From contig NZ_SCOH01000011.1 of NCBI RefSeq assembly GCF_005503445.1, positions 34,085 through 98,084 of the forward strand: a stretch of DNA of 64,000 bases, given 5' to 3'. A model generated the notes under the pieces. The model was not told the DNA's origin, searched no databases, and saw nothing but the letters and a program-made list of their open reading frames with translations. The stretch is from Chitinivorax sp. B (GTDB lineage Bacteria; Pseudomonadota; Gammaproteobacteria; Burkholderiales; SCOH01). Positions 9,906 through 38,866 of this stretch are shown one piece after another (positions within the stretch are counted from its first letter, which is position 1; each line of letters opens with the position of its first letter). The position numbers were made by a program, and so were the translations under genes.

Positions 9906-10685
9906 CTATTTGCCATAAACGTCGAAATCGAAGTACTTGCCTTGAACCTGCTTGTAGACACCATTACTTCGAATGGCCTTGATGGCTGCCGTGAATTGGT
10001 CACGCAGATCGGCATCCGCCTTGCGTACGGCAACCGCCGCGCCAAAGCCGATGTATTTCGGATCATCCAGTACCGGTCCGACAAAACCATAATCCTTGCC
10101 AGCTGGTGTATCCATGAAATCGACCTTACCTACTACGCTATCCACCAGGGTGGTATCGATGCGGCCCGATTTCAGGTCCAGAAACACCTCGTTCTGCGAG
10201 CCGTAGGGAACAACTTGTGCACCTGCACGGCCATAGATATCGGCTGCATATTGCTCTTGAGTGGAGCCACGCAATACGCCGATCTTTTTACCCTTCATGC
10301 TTTCCGGTGTACCGGCCAGTTTTTTGTCGTTCTTGGCGATCAAACGGGAGGGGGTGTGATAATACTTCTCGGAGAACTCCACCGCGCGCTTGCGTTCTTC
10401 GGTGATCGACATGGAGGAAATGATGGCGTCGAATTTGCGGGCGTTCAACGCAGGGATGATGCCATCCCAGTCTTGCTCGACAAAGGTACACTTGGCCTTC
10501 ATCTGTGCACACAGGGCATTGGCGATATCAACATCGAAACCGGCCAACTTACCATCGGGGGTCTTGTAGGTGAAGGGCTTGTAAGCCGCTTCCAGACCAA
10601 TACGGATGGTTTTCCATTCTTTTGCCTGGGCGGTCGCCGCCAAAGCAGACATGAGTAGCGCAGCAATGAGCGCACGTTTCTGCAT
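9906..10685 (-). CDS. aotJ: periplasmic lysine/arginine/ornithine-binding protein
   Basis: A 259-aa family-3 solute-binding protein with a signal peptide (MQKRALIAALLMSALAATAQA). It is the first gene of the transporter operon. Confidence 0.9.
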   Translation of the reverse strand: MQKRALIAALLMSALAATAQAKEWKTIRIGLEAAYKPFTYKTPDGKLAGFDVDIANALCAQMKAKCTFVEQDWDGIIPALNARKFDAIISSMSITEERKRAVEFSEKYYHTPSRLIAKNDKKLAGTPESMKGKKIGVLRGSTQEQYAADIYGRAGAQVVPYGSQNEVFLDLKSGRIDTTLVDSVVGKVDFMDTPAGKDYGFVGPVLDDPKYIGFGAAVAVRKADADLRDQFTAAIKAIRSNGVYKQVQGKYFDFDVYGK

Positions 10686-10799
10686 ATTGTACTCCTCGTA
10701 TCAAACCGGCCAGCATACCACAAGCCGCATCCATCCTTCACCCCACCGCTTTATTGGTTATGGATTACGCGATGAGTCGAAAAGATTGTAACCACCCGA

Positions 10800-10830
10800 C
10801 TGATCGACACATTTCTTGAAAGCGACATGT
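10800..10830 (-). promoter_or_regulatory. putative ArgR-type box upstream of aotJ
   Basis: The minus strand reads ATGTCGCTTTCAAGAAATGTGTCGATC, with TGTCGC-N8-AA followed by a second TGTCGA half-site. It lies about 120-145 bp upstream of aotJ. Confidence 0.35.
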
Positions 10831-10918
10831 TGTTATATCGCCATATGACCGATTACACAGTATCAACCGAACCACCGAAACATGCGAAAATGATTGGTTC
10901 CATGTGCAGGCATCCAAG

Positions 10919-10960
10919 CGTCGAGCCAATGTACAAAGCTGTCGCATTAGGGAAATCCGC
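10919..10960 (+). promoter_or_regulatory. putative ArgR-type box upstream of gdhB
   Basis: The plus strand reads CGTCGAGCCAATGTACAAAGCTGTCGCATTAGGGAAATCC. The half-sites are 21 bp apart and the second is TGTCGC-N8-AA. The first half resembles the aruC site (CGTCGC-N4-AATG). Confidence 0.4.
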
Positions 10961-11144
10961 TAGATCAGCGTTTCGTTAGAATGCGCCAGAATAAAAAAAG
11001 GCATGACACTTGAGTGATAGTCGTATTTAGCTATGCTGAAATGTTCGCCGGCGCCAGTGGCTGCCCCAAAACCGTTGAATGGCTTGATCACAAGTCAAGT
11101 CACTGCAGCGGCTTTGGGACAGCTTCTGAGGAGGAGACCCCCAC

Positions 11145-14100
11145 ATGCAAAGCGATATCGTCGCAACCAAGCTACTCGACCAGATTTGTGCTGCCGGTAA
11201 TGGCAATGCTGCCCCCGGACTGACGAGTTTTCTCGAACAGTACTACCGCCTTGTCGCCACTGAAGACCTGGAAAGCCGTGAAGCGCTTGACTGGTATGGT
11301 GCAGCGCTGGCGCATTACCAGTTCGGCGCCAAGCGCCCGGCAGGTGAGCTGAAGCTGCGCGTCTACAACCCCAGCTTCAACGAAGACAATTGGCAGACCT
11401 CTCATACCGTCGTCGAAATCATCAATGACGATATGCCATTTCTGGTGGACACCGTCAGTCTGACTTTGCAACGCCTGGGCCTCAACATCCATCTGATCAT
11501 CCATCCAATTTTTGATGTGAACCGCGATGGTAAAGGTCAGTTGAGCGGTTTCGATGCGGCAGATACGCGTGCCGAATCCTGGATGCATGTCGAGATCGAC
11601 CGCATCAGCGGGCGTGGTCAGCTGGAAGAGATCCATGCCGCACTGGAAACCGCATTGACCCAGCTGCGTGCCTGCGTTGAAGACTGGCCTACCATGGCAA
11701 CCAGGTTGGAAGCCGTGGTTGACAGCCTACCCAAAGGCAATAGCGAAGCCGCACAGGCTGCCGATTACCTGACTTGGTTGCGGGACGAACATTTTGTATT
11801 CCTGGGCTTCCGTGAATACGAGCTGACCAGTGATGACAAGGGTCCACAACTGAAGATCGTCAACGAATCCGGCCTGGGTATGTTGCGCGAGGCAGGCGAA
11901 AAGACCCTCTCGGCCAGCTTCAAGGCATTGCCGCTTGAGCTGCGGGATCCGAAGCACCCGCGTGCCAAGCAGTTGATGGTGCTGACCAAGTCCAACTCCC
12001 GTTCTACCGTGCATCGCTCCGGCTATCTGGATGTGATTGCCCTCCGCCGCTTTGACGCTGCCGGCAACGCCGTGGGTGAATACCGATTCCTTGGTCTGTA
12101 TACGGCTGCTGCATACAATACGCCACCACATCAGATTCCATTGCTGTCCGACAAGATTGACGCCGTGATGAAGATGAGTGGCTTGCTGCCGAACAGCCAC
12201 AAGGCTAAAGCCCTGCTGAACGTACTGGAAACCTACCCACGCGACGAATTGATCGAAGCCAGCGAGGAAACACTGTTCCAGATCGCACTAGGCGTGGTCA
12301 ACCTACAGGAACGTTCACGTGTACGCGTGTTCATTCGCGAAGACATTTTCCGTCGTTATGTATCCGCACTGGTTTATCTGCCACGCGATACCTACAACAC
12401 GGATGTCCGTATCAAGATGCAGCAGATTCTGCTGAATGCCTTTAATGGCGTCAGTGCAGAATTCAACGTCATGCTGTCAGAAGCTGCGCTGGCACGCATT
12501 CACTTCATCGTTCGCATTCCGACGGGTGCGCAGCTTAACTACGATGCAGCAGATGTAGAAGCTCAAATTGTTGCCGCTTCCCGCCGCTGGGCTGACGATC
12601 TGCGCGACAACCTTTTGCAACACGCAGGTGAAGAGCGTGGCAATGCCCTGCTTCGCCGTTACCAGAACAGTTTCCCGGCCGCTTATCTGGCTGATTTCAA
12701 TGCCCGCAATGCTGTCGTTGATATCGACCGTATCGAGTCCTGCCTGGCAGGTCATCCGCTGGAGCTGGCCCTGTCAGCACCGAACCCATCCGATACCAGC
12801 CTGATCCGACTGAAACTGTATCGCTCTCAACCCATAGAGCTCTCGGATAGTTTGCCACTGCTGGAAAACCTGGGCGTGCGCGTGACCGATGAGCGCCCTT
12901 ACAAACTGCTGCTGGATGACGGACGCACGGTATCAATCACCGACATCGGTCTGCGCATGCCGCAAACCGGCCTGTTACATGACAGCGATGCGCGCCGCGC
13001 GTTCCAACATGCTTTTGCTGCGACCTTCACAGGTTTGGCAGAAAACGACCCGTTCAACCGCCTGGTTCTGCTGGCCGGTTTGCAATGGCGCGAAGTAGTT
13101 GTGCTGCGTGCTTACTCCAAGTATTTGCGCCAAATCGGTTTCAATTACACCATCGAAACGCTGGCTGACACGCTAGCACGCCATGCAGATCTGGCGAAGC
13201 GTCTGGCCGGCTTGTTCAATGCCATGTTTGAACCAGCACAGACTGGCAAACATGATATCGACACACAGTTTGTCGAGCTGAAGGATGCGCTGCAGAAGGT
13301 CGACAGTGTGGATGACGAACGCATCCTGTCTGGCCTGTTCAATGTGATCAAAGCCACCCTACGTACCAATTTCTTCCAGCCTGCTGTCGATGGCCAGCAA
13401 AAGCCTTACATTTCATTCAAGCTGTCCCCGCGTGACATCCCGAACATGCCGCAGCCGGTGCCCATGTTTGAAATCTGGGTTTATTCACCACGTGTCGAAG
13501 GTGTCCACTTGCGTGGTGGCAAAGTGGCCCGTGGTGGTCTGCGTTGGTCGGATCGCAAGGAAGACTTCCGTACCGAAGTACTGGGCCTGGTGAAAGCGCA
13601 GATGGTGAAAAACACCGTCATCGTGCCGGTTGGCTCAAAAGGTGGTTTTGTCTGCAAGCAGATGGTGCCAGGCATGGATCGCGATGCAGTTCAGGTGGAA
13701 GGCGTGGAATGCTACAAGACCTTTATCCGTGGCCTGCTGGATGTCACCGACAACCTGAAGGAAGGTAAAGTCGTACCGCCGTTGAACGTGGTGCGCCGCG
13801 ATCAGGACGACCCCTATCTGGTGGTGGCAGCTGACAAAGGTACCGCCACCTTCTCCGACATTGCCAACAGCGTGTCGCAGGAATATGGCTTCTGGCTGGA
13901 CGATGCCTTTGCATCCGGTGGCTCCGCAGGATATGACCACAAGAAGATGGGCATTACCGCCCGTGGCGCGTGGGAATCGGTCAAGCGCCAGTTCCGTGAA
14001 ATGGGCGTGGATACCCAGCAAGAAGTGTTCACTGTAGCCGGTATTGGCGATATGGCAGGTGACGTGTTCGGTAACGGCATGTTGAACAGCCCGTTCATCA

Positions 14101-28162: not shown

Positions 28163-28485
28163 TTTGCTTCCTTATTGATGACAAATGGCTATGGTAGCCG
28201 TTTCTTAGTTACCAGAAAATCGAATGCCACCGCACCAGCCCCTTAACAATATGACTTACCCTTTTGCCGCAACGGGCGGACAGAATACACATAGAAACCA
28301 CGTGAGCCGATCTGCATCAACGAGATTTTAATCGAATAACTTGTCACATAACCGTCATATTTCCATGGCACAGTGGCGGGCAATGCAACCGTTATCGTAT
28401 ACACCTCCATTACAAACACCACATGAGCTGATATTTGCCAATTCAGATCAGCCAGTAGCGAACACATTTCAGCATACTTACTCAA

Positions 28486-28512
28486 GCCGCCAAATCTGGC
28501 GGCTTTTTATTT
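28486..28512 (+). terminator. orphan plus-strand intrinsic terminator upstream of the psp/flotillin operon
   Basis: The sequence is GCCGCCA-AATC-TGGCGGC followed by TTTTTATTT. No plus-strand CDS precedes it. Confidence 0.45.
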
Positions 28513-28583
28513 GGCCTCGTCAAACCAGCATTTCCGCAGCGGCGCAACACGCAAGTCATTTGACAGCACTGCCGTCAGAGCAA

Positions 28584-28626
28584 GACATAATATGTCTTGA
28601 CATTTTATGTCCAAAATCCAATACTC
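28584..28626 (+). promoter_or_regulatory. sigma70-like promoter (TTGACA-N17-AATACT) overlapped by two tandem palindromes GACAT-N3-ATGTC
   Basis: The sequence is AGACATAATATGTCTTGACATTTTATGTCC. It lies about 40 bp upstream of the GTG start at 28665. Confidence 0.3.
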
Positions 28627-28664
28627 AACCTGTCGCTTTCATCCTTTTACCTTGGAGACAACGC

Positions 28665-29078
28665 GTGGACTTTCTGCAACGCATCGAACAATCCCTGACC
28701 GAGGTGCAATCCCACATGGGTGGACTAGAAGTACAAATGCAACCAATTCCCGGTGAAGTGGATGTGGTTCAACTCACCATCGAGGGTCGTGAGTCACTGC
28801 CGATTTTTCTCACTCGCTCGGACGCGCAAATGTTGTGTATCTGCTACCTGTGGACCGATGCCGAAGTTAAGCCGGATCAGCGCCAGGCGATGCAAACGAC
28901 GATGCTGGATCTGAACGTAGCAGTACCGTTGTCCTCTTTCGGACGCATCCAAGACAAATATGTACTGTTCGGCGCCCTGGCAAGCCACGCGACACCCGCC
29001 GACATTGCACTGGAAATCGTGACACTCAGCGACAACTCGGTCGACGCGCTGGATGCGATGTCGGACTACCTAATCTAA
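28665..29078 (+). CDS. YjfI-like DUF2170-family protein
   Basis: A 137-aa product from a GTG start preceded by GGAG, which is the right size for DUF2170. The track ORF (28341..) cannot be real because it runs through the terminator hairpin. It is the first gene of the operon. Confidence 0.5.
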   Translation: MDFLQRIEQSLTEVQSHMGGLEVQMQPIPGEVDVVQLTIEGRESLPIFLTRSDAQMLCICYLWTDAEVKPDQRQAMQTTMLDLNVAVPLSSFGRIQDKYVLFGALASHATPADIALEIVTLSDNSVDALDAMSDYLI

Positions 29079-29088
29079 GGAGGCAAAC

Positions 29089-29808
29089 ATGAATGTGTTC
29101 AACAAAATTCTTACCGCCCTACGTGGTTCGGTTCGCGAGATCGGCGAAAGCGTGGTCGATGCCAATGCTACCCGCATCTATGAGCAGGAGATCATGGATG
29201 CCAAGCACCACTTGAGCCAAGCCAAACAGGACTTAACGCTGGTCATGGCCAAGGAAATGCAAGCACAGCGGGATATCGCACGCCTGAATGGCGAAATCGC
29301 CAAGTATGAGCAACATGCACTACAGGCCCTGGACAAGGATGCCGCCACGCTGGCAGAAGAGGTTGCAGAACGGATTGCCATACTGGAAGTGGAGCTGACA
29401 GGCCAGATCAAGGTCAAGGAGGAATTTGCCGGTAACATTGTGCGACTGAAAGAACTGATCAAACAAACTGAAGCTAAATTACGAGAACATGAGCGTGAAC
29501 TGGCCATGGCCAAAACCACCGAAAGCGTCTATCGCGCTACTCAGTCCATCTCGCAGAGTATGCATGGCGGTGGGTCCAAGCTGATATCGGCAAGGGAATC
29601 TCTGGATCGCATCAAGCAACGCCACACCGAACTGAGTGATCGTATCAAGGCCACTGAACAATTGGATAACGAGTTGGGTGACAAAGCGCTGGATGCCAAG
29701 CTAGCAGCTGCAGGTATCGGCGCACAGGTTAATGGCAAGCAGGTTGTGCTGGACCGATTGAAAGCCAAGCATCGCGGCACCGATACCTCGCCAAAACAGG
29801 ATACGTAA
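29089..29808 (+). CDS. PspA/IM30-family protein (YjfJ-like, ESCRT-III-like)
   Basis: A 239-aa coiled-coil protein with the PspA/IM30 pattern (MNVFNKILTALRGSVREIGESVVDANATRIYEQEIMDAKHHL...). A strong AAGGAGG RBS precedes it. Confidence 0.8.
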   Translation: MNVFNKILTALRGSVREIGESVVDANATRIYEQEIMDAKHHLSQAKQDLTLVMAKEMQAQRDIARLNGEIAKYEQHALQALDKDAATLAEEVAERIAILEVELTGQIKVKEEFAGNIVRLKELIKQTEAKLREHERELAMAKTTESVYRATQSISQSMHGGGSKLISARESLDRIKQRHTELSDRIKATEQLDNELGDKALDAKLAAAGIGAQVNGKQVVLDRLKAKHRGTDTSPKQDT

Positions 29809-30137
29809 TGAGCAAGCCGATTCCCAGCCGCTGGCAAAGCTCGGACACCGCCATCAAAGCCGTGCAAGTCGCATTTGATGTCGAAGAGACGGTAATGAAT
29901 GCTGTGCGCCGTGCAGCCTTTGACAATAGTTTGTCCGCTTCGGATCAAATCCGCTTGGTTCTAGGTTTGTCCGTCGCCACCAAACCAAAGCGGCCACGCC
30001 TGACTGTCTCGCTGTCGGAAGAGGATTACCGTATTCTGGGCAAACGGTATGGCATCGATCCGGACGAACGGCTAAAAATCAAGGAGCACGTCACACAAGA
30101 CCTGATCCAGTTTGCTCAAACCACCGAGGACAAATGA
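29808..30137 (+). CDS. small protein with two tandem ribbon-helix-helix (CopG/Arc-like) repeats
   Basis: 109 aa. Its start overlaps the PspA stop (TAATG). Repeat 1 (KAVQVAFDVEETVMNAVRRAAFDNSLSASDQIRLVL) and repeat 2 (RLTVSLSEEDYRILGKRYGI) both fit the RHH strand-helix pattern. Confidence 0.4.
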   Translation: MSKPIPSRWQSSDTAIKAVQVAFDVEETVMNAVRRAAFDNSLSASDQIRLVLGLSVATKPKRPRLTVSLSEEDYRILGKRYGIDPDERLKIKEHVTQDLIQFAQTTEDK

Positions 30138-30162: not shown

Positions 30163-30858
30163 ATGCCACTGTGGCTTGATGCCATCCTGAGTTTTCCAAC
30201 CATCGTTTACACCATCTTACTGGTTGTCGTGGTGACTTATTGGCTGCTCGCCATTGTCGGGCTGGTCGATTTCAGCCATGGCCATCATGGCCATATGGAA
30301 TGGCACGACCTTGCGCATGGTCATGGCCACGATACCCACTTTCCTGCAGATGCGCACGGACATGGCGAAACCGATGTCAGCACGATTGCCAGTTTCGCCA
30401 TGGCGATGGGGCTTAGCGGTGTGCCCTTTTCGATTGTCGTCAGTCTGATCGTGTTCTTTGCCTGGGTTATATCGGCATTGGTGGGTGAATACGTACTGGT
30501 GTGGGTACCAACCCAGCTACTCAGAATATTGTTCGGTCTAGCAGTGATGGCAGGCGCCTTTGCAATGGCCTTGCCACTGACCGCCCTGACAATCCGTCCG
30601 ATGCGACCTCTGTTTGTCGTACACAACGCCCCACACAATGCCGGCCTGGTTGGGTTGCCCTGTCGTATTTTGACCCTAACGGTGGACGAAAAATTTGGTC
30701 AGGCAGAGGTCACGCACCAAGGCAGCACGTTCAACATCAAAATCTGGGCTCCCACACCCAATGGCTTGACCAAGGGCAGCATCAGTGCCCTGCTGGATTA
30801 CGACCAGAAAACTGGTCGTTACGAAGTGGCAACGGTCGATATCACCACCGACCAATGA
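30163..30858 (+). CDS. YqiJ/NfeD-like inner-membrane protein (His-rich loop, C-terminal OB-like beta domain)
   Basis: 231 aa with an N-terminal TM, the His-rich segment HGHHGHMEWHDLAHGHGHDTHFPADAHGHGE, further TM helices and a soluble beta-rich C-terminus. It sits directly upstream of the flotillin gene, as in yqiJ-yqiK and nfeD-floT pairs. Confidence 0.5.
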   Translation: MPLWLDAILSFPTIVYTILLVVVVTYWLLAIVGLVDFSHGHHGHMEWHDLAHGHGHDTHFPADAHGHGETDVSTIASFAMAMGLSGVPFSIVVSLIVFFAWVISALVGEYVLVWVPTQLLRILFGLAVMAGAFAMALPLTALTIRPMRPLFVVHNAPHNAGLVGLPCRILTLTVDEKFGQAEVTHQGSTFNIKIWAPTPNGLTKGSISALLDYDQKTGRYEVATVDITTDQ

Positions 30859-30964: not shown

Positions 30965-33037
30965 ATGGAAATTCTGCTGATTGCCAGTGGCATACTGACG
31001 CTGATCATCTTTGGTGCATTCGTGCTGTTTGCCAAGTTCTATCACAAAGTAGAGCAAGGTCACGCCATGATCGTCAACACCTTGCGCGCTGAACCGGAAG
31101 TGACCTTCACCGGCCGTATGGTCTACCCCATCATCCATATTAAGGAACTGATGGATATCTCGGTGAAAACCGTGGTGATCAAGCGCACAGGAAAAGAAGG
31201 CTTGATCTGCTCGGACAACATTCGTGCCGATATCGAGGTCACCTTCTTCGTCCACGTCAACAAAACCACTGAAGACGTCCTGAAAGTCGCCCAGACTATC
31301 GGTTGCAACCGCGCCTCCAGCCAGGAAACCTTGGAAGAACTGTTTGCCGCCAAATTTTCAGAGGCGTTGAAAACCGTTGGCAAAGCAATGAAGTTTGAAG
31401 ATCTGTACCAGGAACGTGACAAGTTCCGTGACGAAATCATCCGCCAGATCGGCAACAACCTGTCCGGTTACGTACTGGAAGATGCCGCCATCGATTATCT
31501 GGAACAAACCCCGCTCGATAAGCTGGACCCGAACAATATTCTGGATGCACAAGGCATCCGCAAGATTACCGAACTGACCGCCATCGAACACGTGCAGACC
31601 AACGAGTTGCAACGTAACGAGCAGATGCAGATCAAGAAGAAAGACGTCGAAACCCAGGAAACCTTGCTGGAACTGGAACGCCAACAAGCGGATGCGCAAG
31701 CCCGCCAAACCCGTGAAATCGCCTCAGTCCGTGCTCGCGAACAAGCCGAGGCCGCCAAGATCCAAGCGGAGGAAAATGCCAAGGCCGAGTTGGCACGCAT
31801 CCAGTCCGAACAAGTGATTGCCGTACAACAGGAGAACATGCAACGCGAGAAGGAAGTTGCCGAAAACAACCGTAAGCGAGCGGTGGCCATCGAGGAAGAA
31901 AAAGTCACCCGTGCCCGTCAATTGGAGATCGTCGATCGCGAGAAAGAAGTAGCCTTGCAGGAAATCGACAAAGAAAAGGTATTGGAAATCCAGAAGAAAG
32001 CCATCGCAGACGTCATCCGCGAACGCATCGTGGTGGAACGCACCGTGGCCGAGCAGGAAGAAGCCATCAAGGAACTACGTAAAGTCGCGGAAGCTGACCG
32101 TAACAAAAAAGCCGTGGTCATCACAGCAGAAGGCAAGGCCGAGGAAAAACTGGTGATCGACGTGAAAGCAGCTGAGGCTGAAGAACGCCGCGCCAAGCAC
32201 AAGGCGCAGGAAGAATTGACCTTGGCTGAAGCCCGCCTGAAAGTGGCCGAGAAACAGGCGGAAGCCAAGAAACGGGAAGCCGAGGGGATGGAAGCGGTCG
32301 CCGCCGCACCTGGGCTGGCTCATGCCAAGGTACAAATGGCATCTGCCGACGCCACCGAAAAACAAGGCATGGTCGACGCCAAGGTGAAAATCGCCAGTGC
32401 CGAGGCCGTCACCAAATTGGGGAATGCCGAAGCCGAAGCGCTGTTGGCCAAGCTGGAAGCGGAAGCACAAGGCAAACAACAACTAGGCTTGGCGGATGTG
32501 CAAGTCAAAACGGCTGATGCACAAGCGGTTGAAGCACGCTTCCAGGCCGAAGCCAAGGGCCTGCGTGAGAAATTCGCCGCCATGAAGGAAATGAGCGACG
32601 ATACCCGCTCTCACGAGGAATTCCGGATGCGTCTGGACAATGCCCACATCGAAACGCTCAAGGCGATCGAGGCCAACACGGTGATCGCCAAGGAACAAGC
32701 GGCAATGATCAGTACCGCCCTGGGCAATGCCAAGATCGACATCGTCGGCGGCGAAGGAGATTACTTCCAGAAATTTGTCGGTGCCCTGGGTACGGGCAAG
32801 GCAATAGACGGCATCATCAACCGTAGCCAGACACTGCAACTGGCACTGAAAGACCACCTGACCGGTGAGCGTGACTTCATCGAAGATGCCAAGGGCTTAC
32901 TGGGCAGCCTTGGCAATTCGGCAGATGAGCTACAGAACCTGAGTGTTGCCGCCCTGCTGTCGAAAGTGATGAACAATGGCAGCGACGAGCAGAAAGCGGC
33001 ACTGACCAGCTTGCTGGCAGGGTTCAAGAAGCCTTGA
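30965..33037 (+). CDS. flotillin-family protein (SPFH/band-7 domain plus long EA-rich coiled coil), YqiK-like
   Basis: 690 aa with an N-terminal TM, an SPFH domain and an extended Glu/Ala/Lys-rich coiled-coil region. A GAGGA RBS precedes it. Confidence 0.85.
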   Translation: MEILLIASGILTLIIFGAFVLFAKFYHKVEQGHAMIVNTLRAEPEVTFTGRMVYPIIHIKELMDISVKTVVIKRTGKEGLICSDNIRADIEVTFFVHVNKTTEDVLKVAQTIGCNRASSQETLEELFAAKFSEALKTVGKAMKFEDLYQERDKFRDEIIRQIGNNLSGYVLEDAAIDYLEQTPLDKLDPNNILDAQGIRKITELTAIEHVQTNELQRNEQMQIKKKDVETQETLLELERQQADAQARQTREIASVRAREQAEAAKIQAEENAKAELARIQSEQVIAVQQENMQREKEVAENNRKRAVAIEEEKVTRARQLEIVDREKEVALQEIDKEKVLEIQKKAIADVIRERIVVERTVAEQEEAIKELRKVAEADRNKKAVVITAEGKAEEKLVIDVKAAEAEERRAKHKAQEELTLAEARLKVAEKQAEAKKREAEGMEAVAAAPGLAHAKVQMASADATEKQGMVDAKVKIASAEAVTKLGNAEAEALLAKLEAEAQGKQQLGLADVQVKTADAQAVEARFQAEAKGLREKFAAMKEMSDDTRSHEEFRMRLDNAHIETLKAIEANTVIAKEQAAMISTALGNAKIDIVGGEGDYFQKFVGALGTGKAIDGIINRSQTLQLALKDHLTGERDFIEDAKGLLGSLGNSADELQNLSVAALLSKVMNNGSDEQKAALTSLLAGFKKP

Positions 33038-33127: not shown

Positions 33128-33664
33128 ATGCACTGCCCTACCTGCAACGAAGCTCTCAGCCAATACGAACCCGCTGCTGGCCTGCGGGCCCATCATTGTG
33201 AACATGGCCATGGCATGTGGCTGGACATCGCGGAGTACCGTCGCTGGCTGCCGACACAAGCGGCCCACGGCGCCAGCCCCCTGACCGAACCAATATCAGA
33301 CATCAGCGACCACCGCGCGGCCCGTGCTTGCCCGGTATGTACTCGCATCATGCAGAAATATCGGGTATCCAGCCGGTTCGATTACCGCCTTGATCGCTGC
33401 AATACCTGCCAGGGTGTGTGGTTCGACCAAGGCGAATGGGATGCGCTGGTTGCCTTACAACAACAAGGCGATCTGAATACGATTTTGTCAGATGCCGGGC
33501 AACGTGACATTCAAGCCACCATCAGTCGGGAACGCATTGATGCACGCGATCGCGAACGGTTTGGCGACACCGTTTTTGCCGAACTGCAGCGTATCCGCCA
33601 ATGGCTGGCTAACCAACCCAATGCCCATGAACTGCTGGCTTATCTGAACCGCAGGGAACACTGA
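33128..33664 (+). CDS. protein with two tandem zf-TFIIB-like zinc ribbons
   Basis: Ribbon 1 is CPTC...HHCEHGHGMWLD and ribbon 2 is CPVC...CNTCQGVWFDQGEWDAL. Both fit the CPxC...C(x)2(C/H)GxW motif. Confidence 0.6.
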   Translation: MHCPTCNEALSQYEPAAGLRAHHCEHGHGMWLDIAEYRRWLPTQAAHGASPLTEPISDISDHRAARACPVCTRIMQKYRVSSRFDYRLDRCNTCQGVWFDQGEWDALVALQQQGDLNTILSDAGQRDIQATISRERIDARDRERFGDTVFAELQRIRQWLANQPNAHELLAYLNRREH

Positions 33665-33670
33665 TCAACC

Positions 33671-36600
33671 ATGTCCGAACCCCAAGAAAACCTCACCGAA
33701 CTTGCTGGTGGTAGCTACGATCTGCTTCGCCAACGGTTGAATCAACAAGGCGAAATGCTATTGACCAAGGCTGGCACACTGAATGAGGCAAGACTGGCCG
33801 AATTCGGCCGGGAAGACATGCGACTGATCCGCCGCATCCGTGCCCGTACTGAAAACAACTGCGTAGCCCGCGATCTGGTTCGGGTCGGCCCCTGGCTGCT
33901 GTTTGGCTACAACGTCTTCATTGGCCTTAAAAAAGAAACCCGCATCGAGGATGTGTTCAGCCTGTATCAACTGGTGGAAGGCAACGATGGTGACGAACTG
34001 ATACCCTCGCCATTCGATGGAACCTTTCTGGCTGATCAGCGCTTCACGGCCGATTTCCGCGAGCTTTACGCCTATTACAAACAAGCCACTTTGGTGCAGT
34101 TACGGGTACACAATGACAAATTGTTGGTCGCCTTCAAAATCGGCCAACAAATCACCGATATCCGCGTGTTCCGCTGGGCATTGGCGCCAGACGGCAAGAT
34201 TGCCTATATCGACAACCGTGGTGAGCGTGACATACAGCTGCCACCTACCCATGATTTCGAGTGGACCACCACCACCCGCGAAGACCACGTCAATGGCAAG
34301 CACCCGCATATCAACATTCTTGACACGGTGTTTGTGGAAACAATTGGCGGCGATCTGACCATCAAGATCGAGAACAACACTGAAAGTGGATTGGGTATCT
34401 TCAGCGAACCGGTGGATGACCGGAACCAATCATTGGCCGATGCCGACGTCGCCTATGCACGGCTGGGTGCGTTGATTCTGCTACGTATCAAGCCATATCG
34501 TGAAGACAAAGTACGTTACTTGGTCTACAACCAGCGCACCCAAACCGCCACCCGGATTGATGAGATGGGTGAGAGTTGTGTGCAATTGCCAGAAGACCAC
34601 GGAATCATCTTTCCCGGTGGGTATTACCTACAAAGCGGTGAATCCAAACGCTTTGATACTGACGCAGCTGGCATGCGCTTCAAGCGGATGGCACGCTCAC
34701 CCAACGGCGAGGATGTGCTGTATGTGTTCTATGAACCGGTAGCCGGTAAGCTTGGCCTGTTCTCCTACAACCTGATTGACAAGCAATTGTCAGCACCGAT
34801 CTACAGCAATGGCTACGCCCGCTTTGCAGACGGCCGCATCCTGTTGTTTATCGCAGAAAGTGACGAACCTACCCGCACCCACCCCATGCAATTGTGGCAA
34901 ACCCCATTCTGCAATGAGGAATTCGCCAGCAGCAAAGCGATTGGACACGGTTTTTTCGGCCGTATTGGTAATGGTGAACTGGTGCGCGGTTTGTCGGAAC
35001 TCTATGGCATTGCCCGTGCCGTGCGCGAGCAATGCCCCTCCCGCCACGCCTATGAAGACCTGATCAAGCACTGTGCCCGCGTTCAGGACAGTTATTTTTG
35101 GCTGGACGCCCCCGAGACAGGCCAGTTGGCTAGCGAACTCAAGGCAATCGGCGACACCGCCCGCGCCACGCTGGATGAGTTCGACAAGATCACCAGCATC
35201 CGTCGTGAAGCAGCCAAATTGCTGACTCAGGCAGAAGCCGAACAGAAAGCACTCAACACGGATATTGCCAGTGCACTATGGCACTCGCCTGGTGATTTTG
35301 TTGTAGCGCTGGACAAGCTGCGCGCGCAACGCGGCAGGCTGCTGACCTTGAAGGAAGCACGTTACATTGACCTGGACCGGATCAGCCAGCTGGATGTCGA
35401 GCTGACTACCGAGCAAACACGAATTGCCGACAAAACCATCCGCTTTTTGGCGCAAGATACAGCCTTTGACAGCTATCGCAATGAGCTGGCAAAAACTGCA
35501 ACCCAGCTGCCCACAGTGGAAAAGACTGTCGATCTGGCGCCGATTCTGGCCCAGCTGGATCAGGTGGCCCATGGTCTGGATCTGTTGACCGAGCTACTGG
35601 GCACACTGGCCGCCGGCGACGCCACTTTGCGCACCCGTATTCTGGATGCTATTTCCGGCGTCTATGCAGAGGTGAACAGATTACGCGCCGAAGCCCGCAA
35701 GCTGAAAAAACAATTGGCCGAAACCGAATCGGCCGCCGAATTTGGTGCGCAATTCAAGCTATTCGGGCAAAGCATTGCCAATGCGCTGGATCTGGCCGAC
35801 TCACCAGAAAAATGCGATGAGGCCATGACACGGCTACTGACGCAACTGGAAGAATTGGAAGGCCAGTTTGGTGAACAGGATGCCTTCATCGCCGATATTG
35901 CCATCAAACGCGAAGCGGTCTACGAGGCATTTTCCGGACGCAAGCAAACCTTGCTGGATGAGCGCCAGAAACGGGCCGGCGCCCTGTTTGATGCTGCCAG
36001 CCGCATTCTCGCAGGCATTCCCAAACGCGTGGTGCAACTGTCTGAGCAAGCACAACTACATGCCTACTTCGCCTCCGACGCGCTGATCCTGAAACTAAAG
36101 GGCTTGATAGGCGAGCTGCGCAAACTGGGCGACGCAGTCCACGCTGACGACCTCGAATCCCAATTGAAAACGGCGCGCGAAAATGCCGTCAAGGTATTGC
36201 GTGATCGCACCGAGCTGATGGGCGAAGGCGGTAATGTGATCCGCCTGGGCAAACACGCCTTTACCGTCAACGTGCAGCCGCTGGACCTGACCCTAGTACC
36301 CAAAGAAGGCGCCCTCGCCTTTCACCTGACCGGGACTGACTATTTTGAAATGGTCAATGACTCAGTGCTGGATTCACTCAAACCCTACTGGGGCTTGGTG
36401 CTACCCAGTGAAACACCTTCGCTGTATCGAGCCGAATATTTAGTCGGCCAATTGCTGGACGCGGCAACCCGCAAGGAATTCGGCTTGGATCTGAACCGCC
36501 TGCACGAGATCGCCGCTGACCTGCCAGCACTACAGGATCGCGTTCGTCAATTTGCGGCACCACGTTATCAGGATGGCTACCAGAAAGGCGTCCATGATCA

Positions 36601-38866
36601 TGATGCTGCATTGATATTGGCAGCCCTGCTACCAATGATGGACCATGCCGGCCTGCTTCGTTACAGCCCAACGGCCCGTGCACTGGCCGCGCTCTACCAT
36701 GCCGCCATTGGCGAAGGCCTGCAGACCCAATTGAAGCGACGCGCCCACAGCGCAGAACAACTTCATGCCCAGTTCGGACAAGATCAAGCCATAAACGAGC
36801 TCCGCCAGCATACCGTACGCAGCCTAGCCCGCTTTGCCAAGGAAAGCGGTCTGGAAAGCTGGTCCAATGGCACTTTGCTGGAAGAAGCTGGTGAATATCT
36901 GGTCGCTGAATTGGCCAGCCCGCAACGGGATTGGACAGAAAGTGGCAATGCCCGGGATTTGGCCGATGGCCTGATTCACTATCTGGAACATGCCAACCTG
37001 ATTGGCGAATGGCGTGACACACTGCAAAGCGGTAGCTTGAATGAACGCTGGTTACATGCCAGCCACTGGCTACAAGGCTATGCAACGGCCCACGCCCCGC
37101 AGGCCGTGTTCTTTGTCCCAGAAGCCGCCGCCCTACTATTGACCGAGCAAGCTCGTCATCGCGTCAATGCCACACTGCAACAGGCAGTACCGGGCTTGCT
37201 GGGTGAACACCCATTGATTCAGCAGGGTACGCTGCAGATCAACCTGAACGATTTCCGTCAAAGGCTAGCTCATCATCGCCAAGTTGTATTGCCTGCCTAC
37301 GAGCAACTACAGGCGTTACGACAGCAACTGGTCACAAATCGCAAGGGCGAACTCAAACTGCATCAGTTCCAGGCCAAACCACTGTCCAGCTTTGTGCGCA
37401 ACCGCCTGATCGACGAGGTATACCTACCCATCATTGGCGACAACTTAGCCAAACAGATGGGTACAGCGGGCGAAGCACGTCGTACCGATTTGATGGGGAT
37501 GCTGTTGCTGATCTCACCCCCCGGTTATGGCAAGACCACGCTGATGGAATATCTGGCTGATCGGCTGGGCATGATCTTCGTTCGAATCAACTGCCCTGCC
37601 TTGGGCCACGACATTGTCTCACTCGACCCTGCCCAGGCAACCCATAGCGCGGCGCGGCAAGAACTGGAAAAGCTCAACCTCGGATTGATGATGGGCAATA
37701 ACGTGATGTTGTATCTGGATGATATCCAACACACCAATCCGGAGTTCCTGCAGAAATTCATCGCGCTATGTGATGGCACGCGCAGAGTGGAAGGCGTATG
37801 GCATGGTGAACCGCGCACGTTCGACCTACGTGGTAAGCGTTTCGCAATCGTCATGGCAGGCAACCCATATACTGAATCAGGGGAAGCCTTCAAGATTCCG
37901 GACATGTTGGCCAACCGGGCCGACATCTATAATTTGGGTGATGTGTTGTCTGGGCGTGAAGCGTTGTTTGCCCTGTCATATCTGGAAAACAGCCTGACCG
38001 CTCACCCCGCCTTGGCTCCACTGACCAGTCGGGCACCGTCGGACGTCCGCCTATTTGTACAGATGGCGCAAGGTGAGAACGTTCCCCAAAGTGAGTTTAG
38101 CCATGCTTACGGTGCCGCTGAAGCCAATGAGATTGTTGGCCTGTTCCGCAAGCTGTTCCAGGTGCGTGATGTGCTGCTGCAGGTGAACGCAGCATACATC
38201 GCCTCCGCCGCGCAGGCTGATGCCTACCGTACTGAACCACCATTCAAGCTGCAGGGTAGCTATCGCAATATGGCCAAACTGACGGCCAGGGTCAGCGCCA
38301 TCATGCGCGATGATGAACTGGCCGCACTGCTGCGTGACCACTATCGCGGTGAAGCACAGACCCTGACCCAAGGTGCGGAAGAAAACCTCCTGAAATTGTC
38401 GGAAATCCTTGGGGACCATACGCCAGAAGAAGCCGAGCGTTGGGCTACCATCCGCGCCGATTTTCAACGCCACAAAAAACAAGGCGGCGCCGATGCCGAT
38501 GGCACCACCAAGCTTGCCAATCTGGCGGCGGATATGGCCGTCACGCTAGGCGATATTGCTGGACAACTACGTGATGCCCAAGGCACCAAAACCTTGGCCA
38601 AGGTTTTGCATGATGGACTGGGTACACTCGCCAAACATGTCCCACCCGCACCGCAAGTACATGTGCAGGTTGAACCCGCGGCAGATATCGTGGACGTCAT
38701 CCGCGGCCTGGCACAAGCCTATGAAACAGCGTTACTACCCACCATCAGTGCCATGAACCATAAGATTAGGTTGGATCATGAGATCTGGGAGAAAGTGCAG
38801 CAAATAGGCGAAGAGCTAACCAACCTGCAACAGCGCATTACCGCAGTAAGCAAGGCACCGCGATGA
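33671..38866 (+). CDS. giant (1731 aa) protein with an N-terminal beta-rich domain, long helical regions and a C-terminal MoxR/dynein-like AAA+ ATPase module
   Basis: Walker A LLISPPGYGKTTL (about nt 37510-37545), Walker-B-like MLYLDDIQH, and sensor-like AIVMAGNP...ANRADIYNLGD. The start lies 6 nt after the zinc-ribbon gene stop, so translational coupling is likely. Confidence 0.7.
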   Translation: MSEPQENLTELAGGSYDLLRQRLNQQGEMLLTKAGTLNEARLAEFGREDMRLIRRIRARTENNCVARDLVRVGPWLLFGYNVFIGLKKETRIEDVFSLYQLVEGNDGDELIPSPFDGTFLADQRFTADFRELYAYYKQATLVQLRVHNDKLLVAFKIGQQITDIRVFRWALAPDGKIAYIDNRGERDIQLPPTHDFEWTTTTREDHVNGKHPHINILDTVFVETIGGDLTIKIENNTESGLGIFSEPVDDRNQSLADADVAYARLGALILLRIKPYREDKVRYLVYNQRTQTATRIDEMGESCVQLPEDHGIIFPGGYYLQSGESKRFDTDAAGMRFKRMARSPNGEDVLYVFYEPVAGKLGLFSYNLIDKQLSAPIYSNGYARFADGRILLFIAESDEPTRTHPMQLWQTPFCNEEFASSKAIGHGFFGRIGNGELVRGLSELYGIARAVREQCPSRHAYEDLIKHCARVQDSYFWLDAPETGQLASELKAIGDTARATLDEFDKITSIRREAAKLLTQAEAEQKALNTDIASALWHSPGDFVVALDKLRAQRGRLLTLKEARYIDLDRISQLDVELTTEQTRIADKTIRFLAQDTAFDSYRNELAKTATQLPTVEKTVDLAPILAQLDQVAHGLDLLTELLGTLAAGDATLRTRILDAISGVYAEVNRLRAEARKLKKQLAETESAAEFGAQFKLFGQSIANALDLADSPEKCDEAMTRLLTQLEELEGQFGEQDAFIADIAIKREAVYEAFSGRKQTLLDERQKRAGALFDAASRILAGIPKRVVQLSEQAQLHAYFASDALILKLKGLIGELRKLGDAVHADDLESQLKTARENAVKVLRDRTELMGEGGNVIRLGKHAFTVNVQPLDLTLVPKEGALAFHLTGTDYFEMVNDSVLDSLKPYWGLVLPSETPSLYRAEYLVGQLLDAATRKEFGLDLNRLHEIAADLPALQDRVRQFAAPRYQDGYQKGVHDHDAALILAALLPMMDHAGLLRYSPTARALAALYHAAIGEGLQTQLKRRAHSAEQLHAQFGQDQAINELRQHTVRSLARFAKESGLESWSNGTLLEEAGEYLVAELASPQRDWTESGNARDLADGLIHYLEHANLIGEWRDTLQSGSLNERWLHASHWLQGYATAHAPQAVFFVPEAAALLLTEQARHRVNATLQQAVPGLLGEHPLIQQGTLQINLNDFRQRLAHHRQVVLPAYEQLQALRQQLVTNRKGELKLHQFQAKPLSSFVRNRLIDEVYLPIIGDNLAKQMGTAGEARRTDLMGMLLLISPPGYGKTTLMEYLADRLGMIFVRINCPALGHDIVSLDPAQATHSAARQELEKLNLGLMMGNNVMLYLDDIQHTNPEFLQKFIALCDGTRRVEGVWHGEPRTFDLRGKRFAIVMAGNPYTESGEAFKIPDMLANRADIYNLGDVLSGREALFALSYLENSLTAHPALAPLTSRAPSDVRLFVQMAQGENVPQSEFSHAYGAAEANEIVGLFRKLFQVRDVLLQVNAAYIASAAQADAYRTEPPFKLQGSYRNMAKLTARVSAIMRDDELAALLRDHYRGEAQTLTQGAEENLLKLSEILGDHTPEEAERWATIRADFQRHKKQGGADADGTTKLANLAADMAVTLGDIAGQLRDAQGTKTLAKVLHDGLGTLAKHVPPAPQVHVQVEPAADIVDVIRGLAQAYETALLPTISAMNHKIRLDHEIWEKVQQIGEELTNLQQRITAVSKAPR

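Follow-up and report, generated by a model that had tools for sequence, protein, structure and literature searches.

The stretch of Chitinivorax sp. B DNA analysed here (the window, 64,000 nucleotides) carries an operon that begins with a DUF2170 gene and a gene of the PspA/IM30 family, and the subject of this report is the small third gene of that operon, here called rhh, together with a pair of palindromes at the operon promoter (Table 1). An earlier note on this DNA had described at this place an open reading frame (ORF) with two segments resembling ribbon-helix-helix (RHH) units, a TAATG overlap with the stop codon of pspA, palindromes upstream and a promoter of the sigma70 rather than the sigma54 type, and each of these descriptions held up as detailed below.

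Table 1. Features of the rhh operon and of its promoter region, in coordinates of the window.
Feature	Position	Strand	Evidence or remark
Distal symmetric element of 13 bp, GACATAATATGTC (putative operator, O2)	28584-28596		exact palindrome; about -52 to -40
-35 hexamer TTGACA	28597-28602	+	made up of TT and bases 1-4 of the proximal element
Proximal symmetric element of 13 bp, GACATTTTATGTC (putative operator, O1)	28599-28611		overlaps the -35 hexamer and spacer
-10 hexamer AATACT	28620-28625	+	17-bp spacer after the -35 hexamer
DUF2170 (YjfI/BacA-like) gene, first in operon	28665-29078	+	Pfam DUF2170, E 1e-30; homologues of 129-163 aa
PspA/IM30-family gene, YjfJ/BacB type	29089-29808	+	Pfam PspA_IM30, E 3e-35
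TAATG stop/start overlap of pspA and rhh	29806-29810	+	sequence; conserved in nearly all of 74 loci
Tandem RHH gene (rhh), 109 aa	29808-30137	+	homologues, AlphaFold, profile alignments
Predicted RHH unit 1, residues 17-52	29856-29963	+	strand KAVQVAFDV, helix A 27-39, turn LSAS, short helix B 44-51
Predicted RHH unit 2, residues 62-106	29991-30125	+	basic arm KRPR, strand LTVSLS, helix A' 71-81, turn GIDP, long helix B' 88-108
Membrane protein gene, His-rich loop, next after rhh	30163-30858	+	position conserved in all loci
Flotillin-like gene, 690 aa, PA3729/BacD type	30965-33037	+	conservation; flotillin/SPFH annotation in plasmid records
Zinc-ribbon (TFIIB-type) gene	33128-33664	+	Pfam Zn_ribbon_TFIIB, E 1e-19; missing from some loci
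DUF3686/AAA-type ATPase gene, 1731 aa, last conserved gene of the cluster	33671-38866	+	conserved across loci

The ORF encodes a protein of 109 amino acids (aa) in which both segments quoted in the earlier note are present. It can be regarded as a real gene because its product matches a hypothetical protein of Chitinivorax sp. B at NCBI with 100% identity and has 347 homologues at E <= 0.01 (about 105-140 aa in length), because a relative is encoded in at least 478 species when one genome per species is scanned, and because the gene occupies a fixed position among its neighbours. The taxa with relatives include Burkholderiales, Rhodocyclales, Chitinibacteraceae and some Lysobacterales, and 34 positions are invariant among 40 aligned sequences of the family. 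The 109-aa protein is matched by no Pfam or NCBIfam model at cut-off, and some UniRef entries of the family already bear the name of CopG-type RHH protein.

The order DUF2170 - PspA - rhh - membrane protein - flotillin-like protein - (zinc ribbon) - DUF3686/AAA ATPase of about 1700 aa was identical in all 80 loci that were fetched, rhh always lying between pspA and the membrane-protein gene. The flotillin-like protein is 62-78% identical across all loci, and the zinc-ribbon gene is present in most, not all, of the rhh-containing operons. In the window the base at 29808 is common to the TAA of pspA and the ATG of rhh (acgTAATGagc), and in nearly all of 74 loci the two genes either overlap by 1 or 4 nt (ATGA, TGATG, TAATG) or are separated by no more than 5 nt. 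To judge from these junctions, rhh is translationally coupled to pspA and the coupling is conserved.

The start of the DUF2170 gene is probably the GTG at 28665, which has a GGAG Shine-Dalgarno sequence at 28654-28657 and agrees with tblastn coverage beginning at residues 1-5 of the protein; the alternative, a long ORF opening with TTG at 28341, would span the promoter. With the start most likely at 28665, the promoter is intergenic. The near-consensus, sigma70-like promoter (TTGACA-17-AATACT, 28597-28625) is interlocked with two exact palindromes, GACATAATATGTC and GACATTTTATGTC, which are the only exact copies of the element in the whole window. The sigma54 signature GG-N10-GC was not found on the plus strand between 28163 and 28720; a search of the whole window for the same pattern was uninformative, with 443 matches against 408 expected. 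The divergent intergenic region also contains a strong terminator-like hairpin (AAGCCGCC-AAAT-CTGGCGGCTT followed by TTTATTT; 28484-28515, plus strand), some 80 bp upstream of the promoter and with no annotated plus-strand gene preceding it. A comparison of the intergenic region with Rfam gave sub-threshold matches only (Phe_leader, E 0.056; csRNA, E 0.31).

The element was followed through 75 non-redundant loci, in which its consensus is GACAT-N3-ATGTC (GACA-TnnnA-TGTC). It precedes DUF2170, the first gene of the operon, in 74 of them, and the remaining locus has an assembly gap there. A tandem pair with a spacing of exactly 15 bp is present in 39 loci and one copy in 35, Comamonadaceae having kept only the proximal copy. 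The hexamer TTGACA is built with the element in 72 of the 75 loci, and 66 have TAnnnT 16-18 bp after the -35. In the 1.40 Mb of DNA that make up these loci there are 100 exact copies, against 0.48 expected from base composition, and all 100 fall between -160 and 0 of a DUF2170 start, with none elsewhere. The element and rhh are found together across orders of proteobacteria and, in variant form, in one Flavobacteriales contig, while the exact element was not found in three related operons that lack rhh. Of these, the Proteus mirabilis and Halomonas operons have the layout membrane protein-flotillin-AAA, and that of pQBR103 is YjfI-PspA-...-SPFH-ATPase; the use of the Pseudomonas aeruginosa bac operon as a further rhh-less control rests on the literature. 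The survey supports the view that the 13-bp element is found only at the DUF2170 promoter, and only in operons with rhh.

The presence of two predicted RHH units in one chain is well supported by sequence patterns and models. The strand of the first unit (V19-Q-V-A-F-D-V25) and that of the second (L65-T-V-S-L69) both alternate hydrophobic and polar residues, both are preceded by basic arms (RW... and KRPR), and the alternation is kept in relatives of 29-38% identity, for example as KKIQVHFTL and RPRIALNLT. Residues Q20, F23 and R64 are invariant in the wide family alignment (A5), and all members of the family, fusion proteins included, carry both units. An AlphaFold model built on a diverse alignment has coil-helix-helix twice, which can be read as a double strand-helix-helix order, namely an extended segment at 15-26, helices at 27-39 and 44-51, a second extended segment at 52-70 and helices at 71-81 and 88-108. 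A first AlphaFold run with 40 close homologues had given a compact model. Both are structurally similar to solved RHH proteins: for the compact model these are TraY, single-chain Arc and AvtR, all monomeric pseudo-dimers, and for the open model obtained with the diverse alignment they are the single RHH units of MazE4, ParD/PrpA, TraM and Reg576.

Profile comparisons point the same way. When the wide family profile was compared with sequences of the PDB, NikA, AvtR and FitA appeared in register among the top seven matches, weakly (E 0.3-0.9). Profiles of the two halves align in register with CopG (P 1e-4 for the N half, 5e-4 for the C half), RPRLTVSLS... of unit 2 falling on KKRLTITLS... of CopG, and the N-half profile aligns in register with Arc and Mnt (P 1e-3), placing Q20 on Q9 of Arc. 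A few relatives give weak matches to RHH models (FitA-like_RHH, best E 0.003; RHH_1, 0.027; RHH_5, 0.041). The claim of two consecutive segments of RHH pattern is thus borne out by the predicted topology and by the alignment of each half with CopG; as regards the prediction of two complete RHH units, the twofold strand-helix-helix order was recovered, while the strands were left unpaired in either model. The remark in the earlier note that a covalently duplicated RHH is uncommon can stand, with the qualification that it is not unprecedented: TraY (PMC12117103) and DndE (PMC10853773) are natural single-chain double-RHH proteins in which the units are paired within the chain, and AvtR is a further case. 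The possibility that the protein is a conserved structural member of a yjfK-type family, which that note had named as a ground for abandoning the idea, does not apply: a yjfK/DUF2491-type identity was rejected since neither a DUF2491 match nor any other Pfam or NCBIfam match of that kind was obtained, and in pQBR103 DUF2491 is a separate gene of 221 aa in an operon without rhh. Some relatives are fused to a different protein of about 200 aa, which is the sole hint of a structural partner.

An exhaustive profile search of the family yielded 176 cluster representatives, and seven divergent relatives (29-38% identity) could be placed on contigs, all of them in DUF2170-PspA operons in which DUF2170 is preceded by the 13-bp element or a variant of it. 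Four of these operons (L087, L088, L089 and L091 in our numbering of loci) are of the flotillin/AAA type and three (L086, from Flavobacteriales, L090 and L092) of a polyamine type with spermine synthase and DUF350. In the DUF2170 upstream regions of L088, L089 and L091 there are two copies of GACATnnnATGTC, one of them mismatched in L089 and L091, and the predicted sheet residues are Q-A-E / R-T-S (R-S-T in L091); L090 has one copy of GACATnnnATGTC with Q-S-E / R-S-S. Three copies of GACATnnnATGAC accompany Q-A-D / R-S-S in L087, and two copies of (G/T)ACATAATATGCA accompany Q-A-Q / R-T-S in L092. In L086, where the sheet residues differ (Q-H-T / R-A-N), the elements are GCCATTAAATGGC and GTCATTTAATGGC, with a site of the form GCCAT-N3-ATGGC. 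The CAT...ATG core, Q20 and R64 are constant in all seven loci, and it is suggestive that the outer bases of the element appear to vary together with the variable residues of the sheet.

In L088, L089 and L091 a third and weaker palindrome, AACATATTATGTA or TACATAAAATGTA, lies downstream of the tandem pair, at a distance of about 16 bp from the proximal element, and overlaps the expected -10 region. The same three loci have an ORF of 59-64 aa directly after rhh (L088:8251-8445, L089:5732-5911, L091:8383-8574), which the operon in the window lacks.

Some members of the family are fusion proteins of 200-620 aa in which the double-RHH domain is C-terminal and follows a linker rich in Pro, Glu, Lys and Ala (P0213, P0218, P0239, P0216 and about 25 more). 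Their N-terminal domain has no Pfam match even at E 10. The N-terminal domain of P0213, about 200 aa long, is nevertheless homologous (E 5e-11) to a protein encoded directly upstream of rhh, and overlapping it, in a polyamine-type PspA operon; coordinates of this upstream protein or fusion are L090:7408-8013, L086:6976-7632 and L092:1202-1855. The fusion implies a functional link between the RHH domain and the protein of about 200 aa, which is likely to be a sensor or modulator. The flotillin-type operon does not contain it.

Taken with the promoter survey, these observations lead us to the reading that the 109-aa protein is probably the dedicated, operator-binding autorepressor of the DUF2170-pspA-rhh-membrane protein-flotillin-(zinc ribbon)-AAA operon. 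A conserved 13-bp element over the -35, with the geometry of Arc and CopG operators, and the coupling to pspA give strong comparative support to the idea of a local repressor that the earlier note had put forward. The operators of Arc and CopG are 13-bp symmetric elements, each composed of inverted repeats of 4 bp with 5 bp between them; that of CopG overlaps the -35, one RHH dimer sits on each half, four dimers bind cooperatively over about 50 bp, and CopG is co-transcribed with its target (PMC2724298). The circuit predicted here has the same outline, a symmetric operator of 13 bp at the repressor's own operon promoter, with the proximal element (28599-28611) overlapping TTGACA (28597-28602).

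Under the autorepressor reading each chain would fold as a pseudo-dimer, and the asymmetric sheet formed by Q20, A22 and D24 of the first strand and R64, T66 and S68 of the second would read one GACAT half-site. Two chains would then occupy each 13-bp element, as two dimers do on Arc and CopG operators, and four chains on the tandem pair would exclude RNA polymerase from the -35 of the near-consensus promoter. Since rhh is translated together with pspA, the level of the repressor would rise with that of PspA, which would amount to negative feedback on the PspA level.

Several observations weigh against this reading, or against the part of it that concerns the fold. The AlphaFold model from the diverse alignment, with a predicted local distance difference test (pLDDT) value of 84, has a predicted TM-score (pTM) of only 0.45 and leaves the two halves unpacked; the compact model of the first run (pTM 0.71) places strand 1 in a long helix. 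We attribute this helix to the shallowness of the first alignment, since it disappeared with the deeper one and the strand alternation persists in distant relatives. A paired beta-sheet is found in neither monomer model, the strands being extended and not scored as paired. Curated RHH models gave no match to the protein of the window and no relative was shown to reach the cut-off, the PDB sequence matches of the family have E values of only 0.1-0.9, and a phmmer search of PDB sequences with the 109-aa protein itself returned noise only. The reference sequences of CopG, Arc and Mnt in the half-profile alignments were entered by hand. No significant internal repeat was detected by hhalign between the N and C halves, with the narrow or the wide alignment, and an ancient duplication is therefore not demonstrable from sequence. 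The invariant aspartate D24 on the side of the sheet predicted to face DNA is unusual. Finally, the rhh-less controls examined comprise three loci only (Proteus, Halomonas and pQBR103), and the covariation of sheet residues and element is based on three divergent loci.

The unpacked halves, the low pTM and the unpaired strands of the deeper-alignment model, together with the linker of only about 12 residues between helix B and strand 2, would also agree with the same function exerted by another assembly, in which the palindromes are read by a symmetric homodimer with N-N' and C-C' sheets or by an open polymer; a perfectly palindromic operator, moreover, needs a two-fold symmetric complex. Pseudo-dimers related by a dyad satisfy that symmetry too, however, as dimers do on the CopG and Arc operators (PMC2724298), and the compact model resembles the pseudo-dimers of TraY, single-chain Arc and AvtR. 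Identical tandem palindromes would be a poor fit to two different sheets (Q-A-D versus R-T-S), and many lineages have a single palindrome. We consider an intermolecular assembly of this kind unlikely. It is quite improbable, in our judgement, that the RHH protein acts instead as a binding partner or adaptor for PspA or the chaperone-like DUF2170 protein, with the palindromes bound by a regulator encoded elsewhere. The translational coupling, which suggests a fixed stoichiometry with PspA, the fusion of some relatives to a non-DNA-binding protein of the same operons and the invariant acidic residue on the sheet face would all be in keeping with such a role. In P. aeruginosa the levels of the other Bac proteins go up 6- to 13-fold when the DUF2170 gene is deleted (PMC10948618), and thus another protein of the operon influences expression there. 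Against this stand the facts that the RHH protein is the sole protein with a DNA-binding fold common to all element-carrying operons, that element and gene co-occur across phyla and are jointly missing from the rhh-less operons, that the 13-bp geometry is that of a classic RHH operator (PMC2724298), and that basic arms precede both strands; a sensor domain fused to one that binds DNA is, for its part, ordinary in one-component regulators.

Some RHH proteins are able to activate transcription, and the distal element at about -52 to -40 lies where class I and II activators bind. Activation through the element is nevertheless very improbable here: the most conserved element is the proximal one, which overlaps the -35 and spacer of a near-consensus promoter that should need no activation, it is the only copy retained in Comamonadaceae, and CopG represses from the equivalent position (PMC2724298). 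A small RHH gene that overlaps its neighbour also recalls toxin-antitoxin pairs, as do the weak FitA-like_RHH matches; the chance that an antitoxin-like gene or a remnant of a mobile element merely happens to stand beside pspA is practically nil, given that there is no adjacent toxin gene, that rhh stands between pspA and the membrane-protein gene in 80 of 80 loci and that all divergent relatives are in DUF2170-PspA operons. The toxin-antitoxin interpretation was rejected on this conserved context.

How an autorepressor of this kind might be relieved is a matter of speculation. The control of PspF through its partner switch with PspA offers an analogy, and membrane stress may relieve repression through a protein partner. 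In polyamine-type operons this partner could be the upstream protein of about 200 aa that is sometimes fused to the RHH domain; the flotillin-type operon has no such protein, so PspA or the DUF2170 protein may fill the role there. That the tandem RHH protein would be the DNA-binding half of a partner-switch circuit replacing PspF/sigma54 is possible, albeit rather doubtful. If it were so, the strong sigma70 promoter would be repressed only as long as a soluble protein of the operon (PspA or the DUF2170 protein in the flotillin type, the upstream or fused protein in the polyamine type) is in complex with the RHH protein or does not antagonise it, and stress that recruits the partner to the membrane would free the operator. 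This would represent an undescribed and widespread logic for the control of PspA/ESCRT-III-like membrane repair, present in at least 478 species, in which an asymmetric single-chain sheet is specialised for a non-palindromic half-site.

The likeness to CopG of pMV158 and Arc of phage P22 lies in the small size, in the location of the repressor gene in its own operon and in the 13-bp operator geometry, with binding being predicted in our case. Each of those two repressors is a homodimer of one unit, whereas here two different units are present in one chain, and the sheet is therefore asymmetric (Q-A-D / R-T-S). The half-site is TGCA or TAGA in those systems and GACA(T) here, and they belong to a plasmid and a phage, while rhh is chromosomal and part of a membrane-stress operon. 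With TraY of the F plasmid, DndE and AvtR the 109-aa protein shares two RHH units in one polypeptide. In the classical psp system (PspF/sigma54) and in actinobacteria (ClgR), as is proposed here, the PspA level is set by a dedicated regulator whose gene accompanies or adjoins pspA (PMC11237479); the present system differs in its sigma70-type promoter without a GG-N10-GC element, in a predicted RHH regulator in place of an AAA+ enhancer-binding or helix-turn-helix protein, and in the predicted occlusion of the promoter.

The operon of the window corresponds to the CesT/Tir-PspA, band-7/flotillin, YqiJ and AAA+ type of Ravi et al. (2024; PMC11237479). Their main text mentions, in one sentence, "an RHH transcription factor" at the end of CesT/Tir-PspA operons of the spermine-synthase type (PMC11237479), and this factor probably belongs to the same family as the 109-aa protein, the divergent members in L086, L090 and L092 being found in operons of that type. 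An RHH gene in the flotillin-type operon is not mentioned in the main texts of PMC11237479, PMC10948618 and PMC2587700, and the RHH passages in the part of the supplement of Ravi et al. that was consulted concern other operons; the two units, the operator and the occurrence in flotillin/AAA-type operons are not described in the main text and that part of the supplement (PMC11237479). The bacABCDEF operon of P. aeruginosa has the same core of DUF2170, PspA, a membrane protein and a 76-kDa flotillin-like protein, with further genes, and is associated with stress and biofilm (PMC2587700, PMC10948618). It differs from the operon of the window in having the gene of its 23-kDa membrane protein directly after that of PspA (PMC2587700), in lacking rhh and in a putative RpoN site (PMC2587700, PMC10948618), and for this rhh-less operon BacA, the DUF2170 protein, has been proposed as the regulator.

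RHH autorepressors with 13-bp operators are textbook knowledge, and a few natural single-chain double-RHH proteins have been described. New in this work are a widespread chromosomal family, lacking a Pfam model, that unites a predicted double RHH with a putative 13-bp operator and is dedicated to DUF2170-PspA operons, and the sharp definition of that candidate operator, set at a promoter of the sigma70 type instead of PspF/sigma54 control. Membrane repair of the PspA/IM30/ESCRT-III type is widespread, and its regulation is understood only for PspF/sigma54, LiaRS and ClgR; the flotillin/AAA- and polyamine-type DUF2170-PspA operons, including bac of P. aeruginosa with its relevance to biofilm and virulence, are without a known regulator. 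For at least 478 species there is now a candidate regulator, a defined GACAT-N3-ATGTC element over a sigma70 -35 and a predicted autorepressor circuit coupled to pspA. The operator may serve as a handle for reporter assays on the signals that induce these operons, and the few single-chain double-RHH proteins known from nature would gain a chromosomal transcription-factor family.

Some variation of the cluster was seen among the surveyed loci. In Chitinimonas lacunae (L029, 9189-10309) DUF2170, a short PspA-like fragment (residues 118-157) and rhh are present with the tandem palindrome intact, and the membrane-protein, flotillin and AAA genes were not detected downstream, so that the cluster may be reduced or rearranged. 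Three loci from Zoogloeaceae and other Betaproteobacteria (L017, L027 and L056, at about 10330-11400) have some 0.9-1.1 kb of extra DNA between rhh and the membrane-protein gene and longer gaps before the zinc-ribbon and AAA genes, which suggests inserted genes in the operon. In four loci of Lysobacterales (L020, L051, L073 and L080) the gene between DUF2170 and rhh has diverged too far for tblastn with the window's PspA at E 1e-5 to detect it; the RHH protein is 61-67% identical there and the palindromes are conserved. A DUF7577/zinc-ribbon gene lies on the same strand directly upstream of the operon in Hydrogenophaga luteola (L001:3711-6705), where a divergent GerE-type two-component system is also present upstream; these may be extra regulators in a lineage that keeps one palindrome.

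As to the remaining genes of the operon, the 231-aa membrane protein encoded after rhh has no Pfam match and, judging by its position, would correspond to the YqiJ/PA3730-type protein of published operons. It contains a His-rich loop, SHGHHGHMEWHDLAHGHGHDTHFPADAHGHGE, that resembles a metal-binding segment. The zinc-ribbon protein of the TFIIB type, a double zinc ribbon, is encoded not only in the window but also at L084:14161-14682, on the minus strand.

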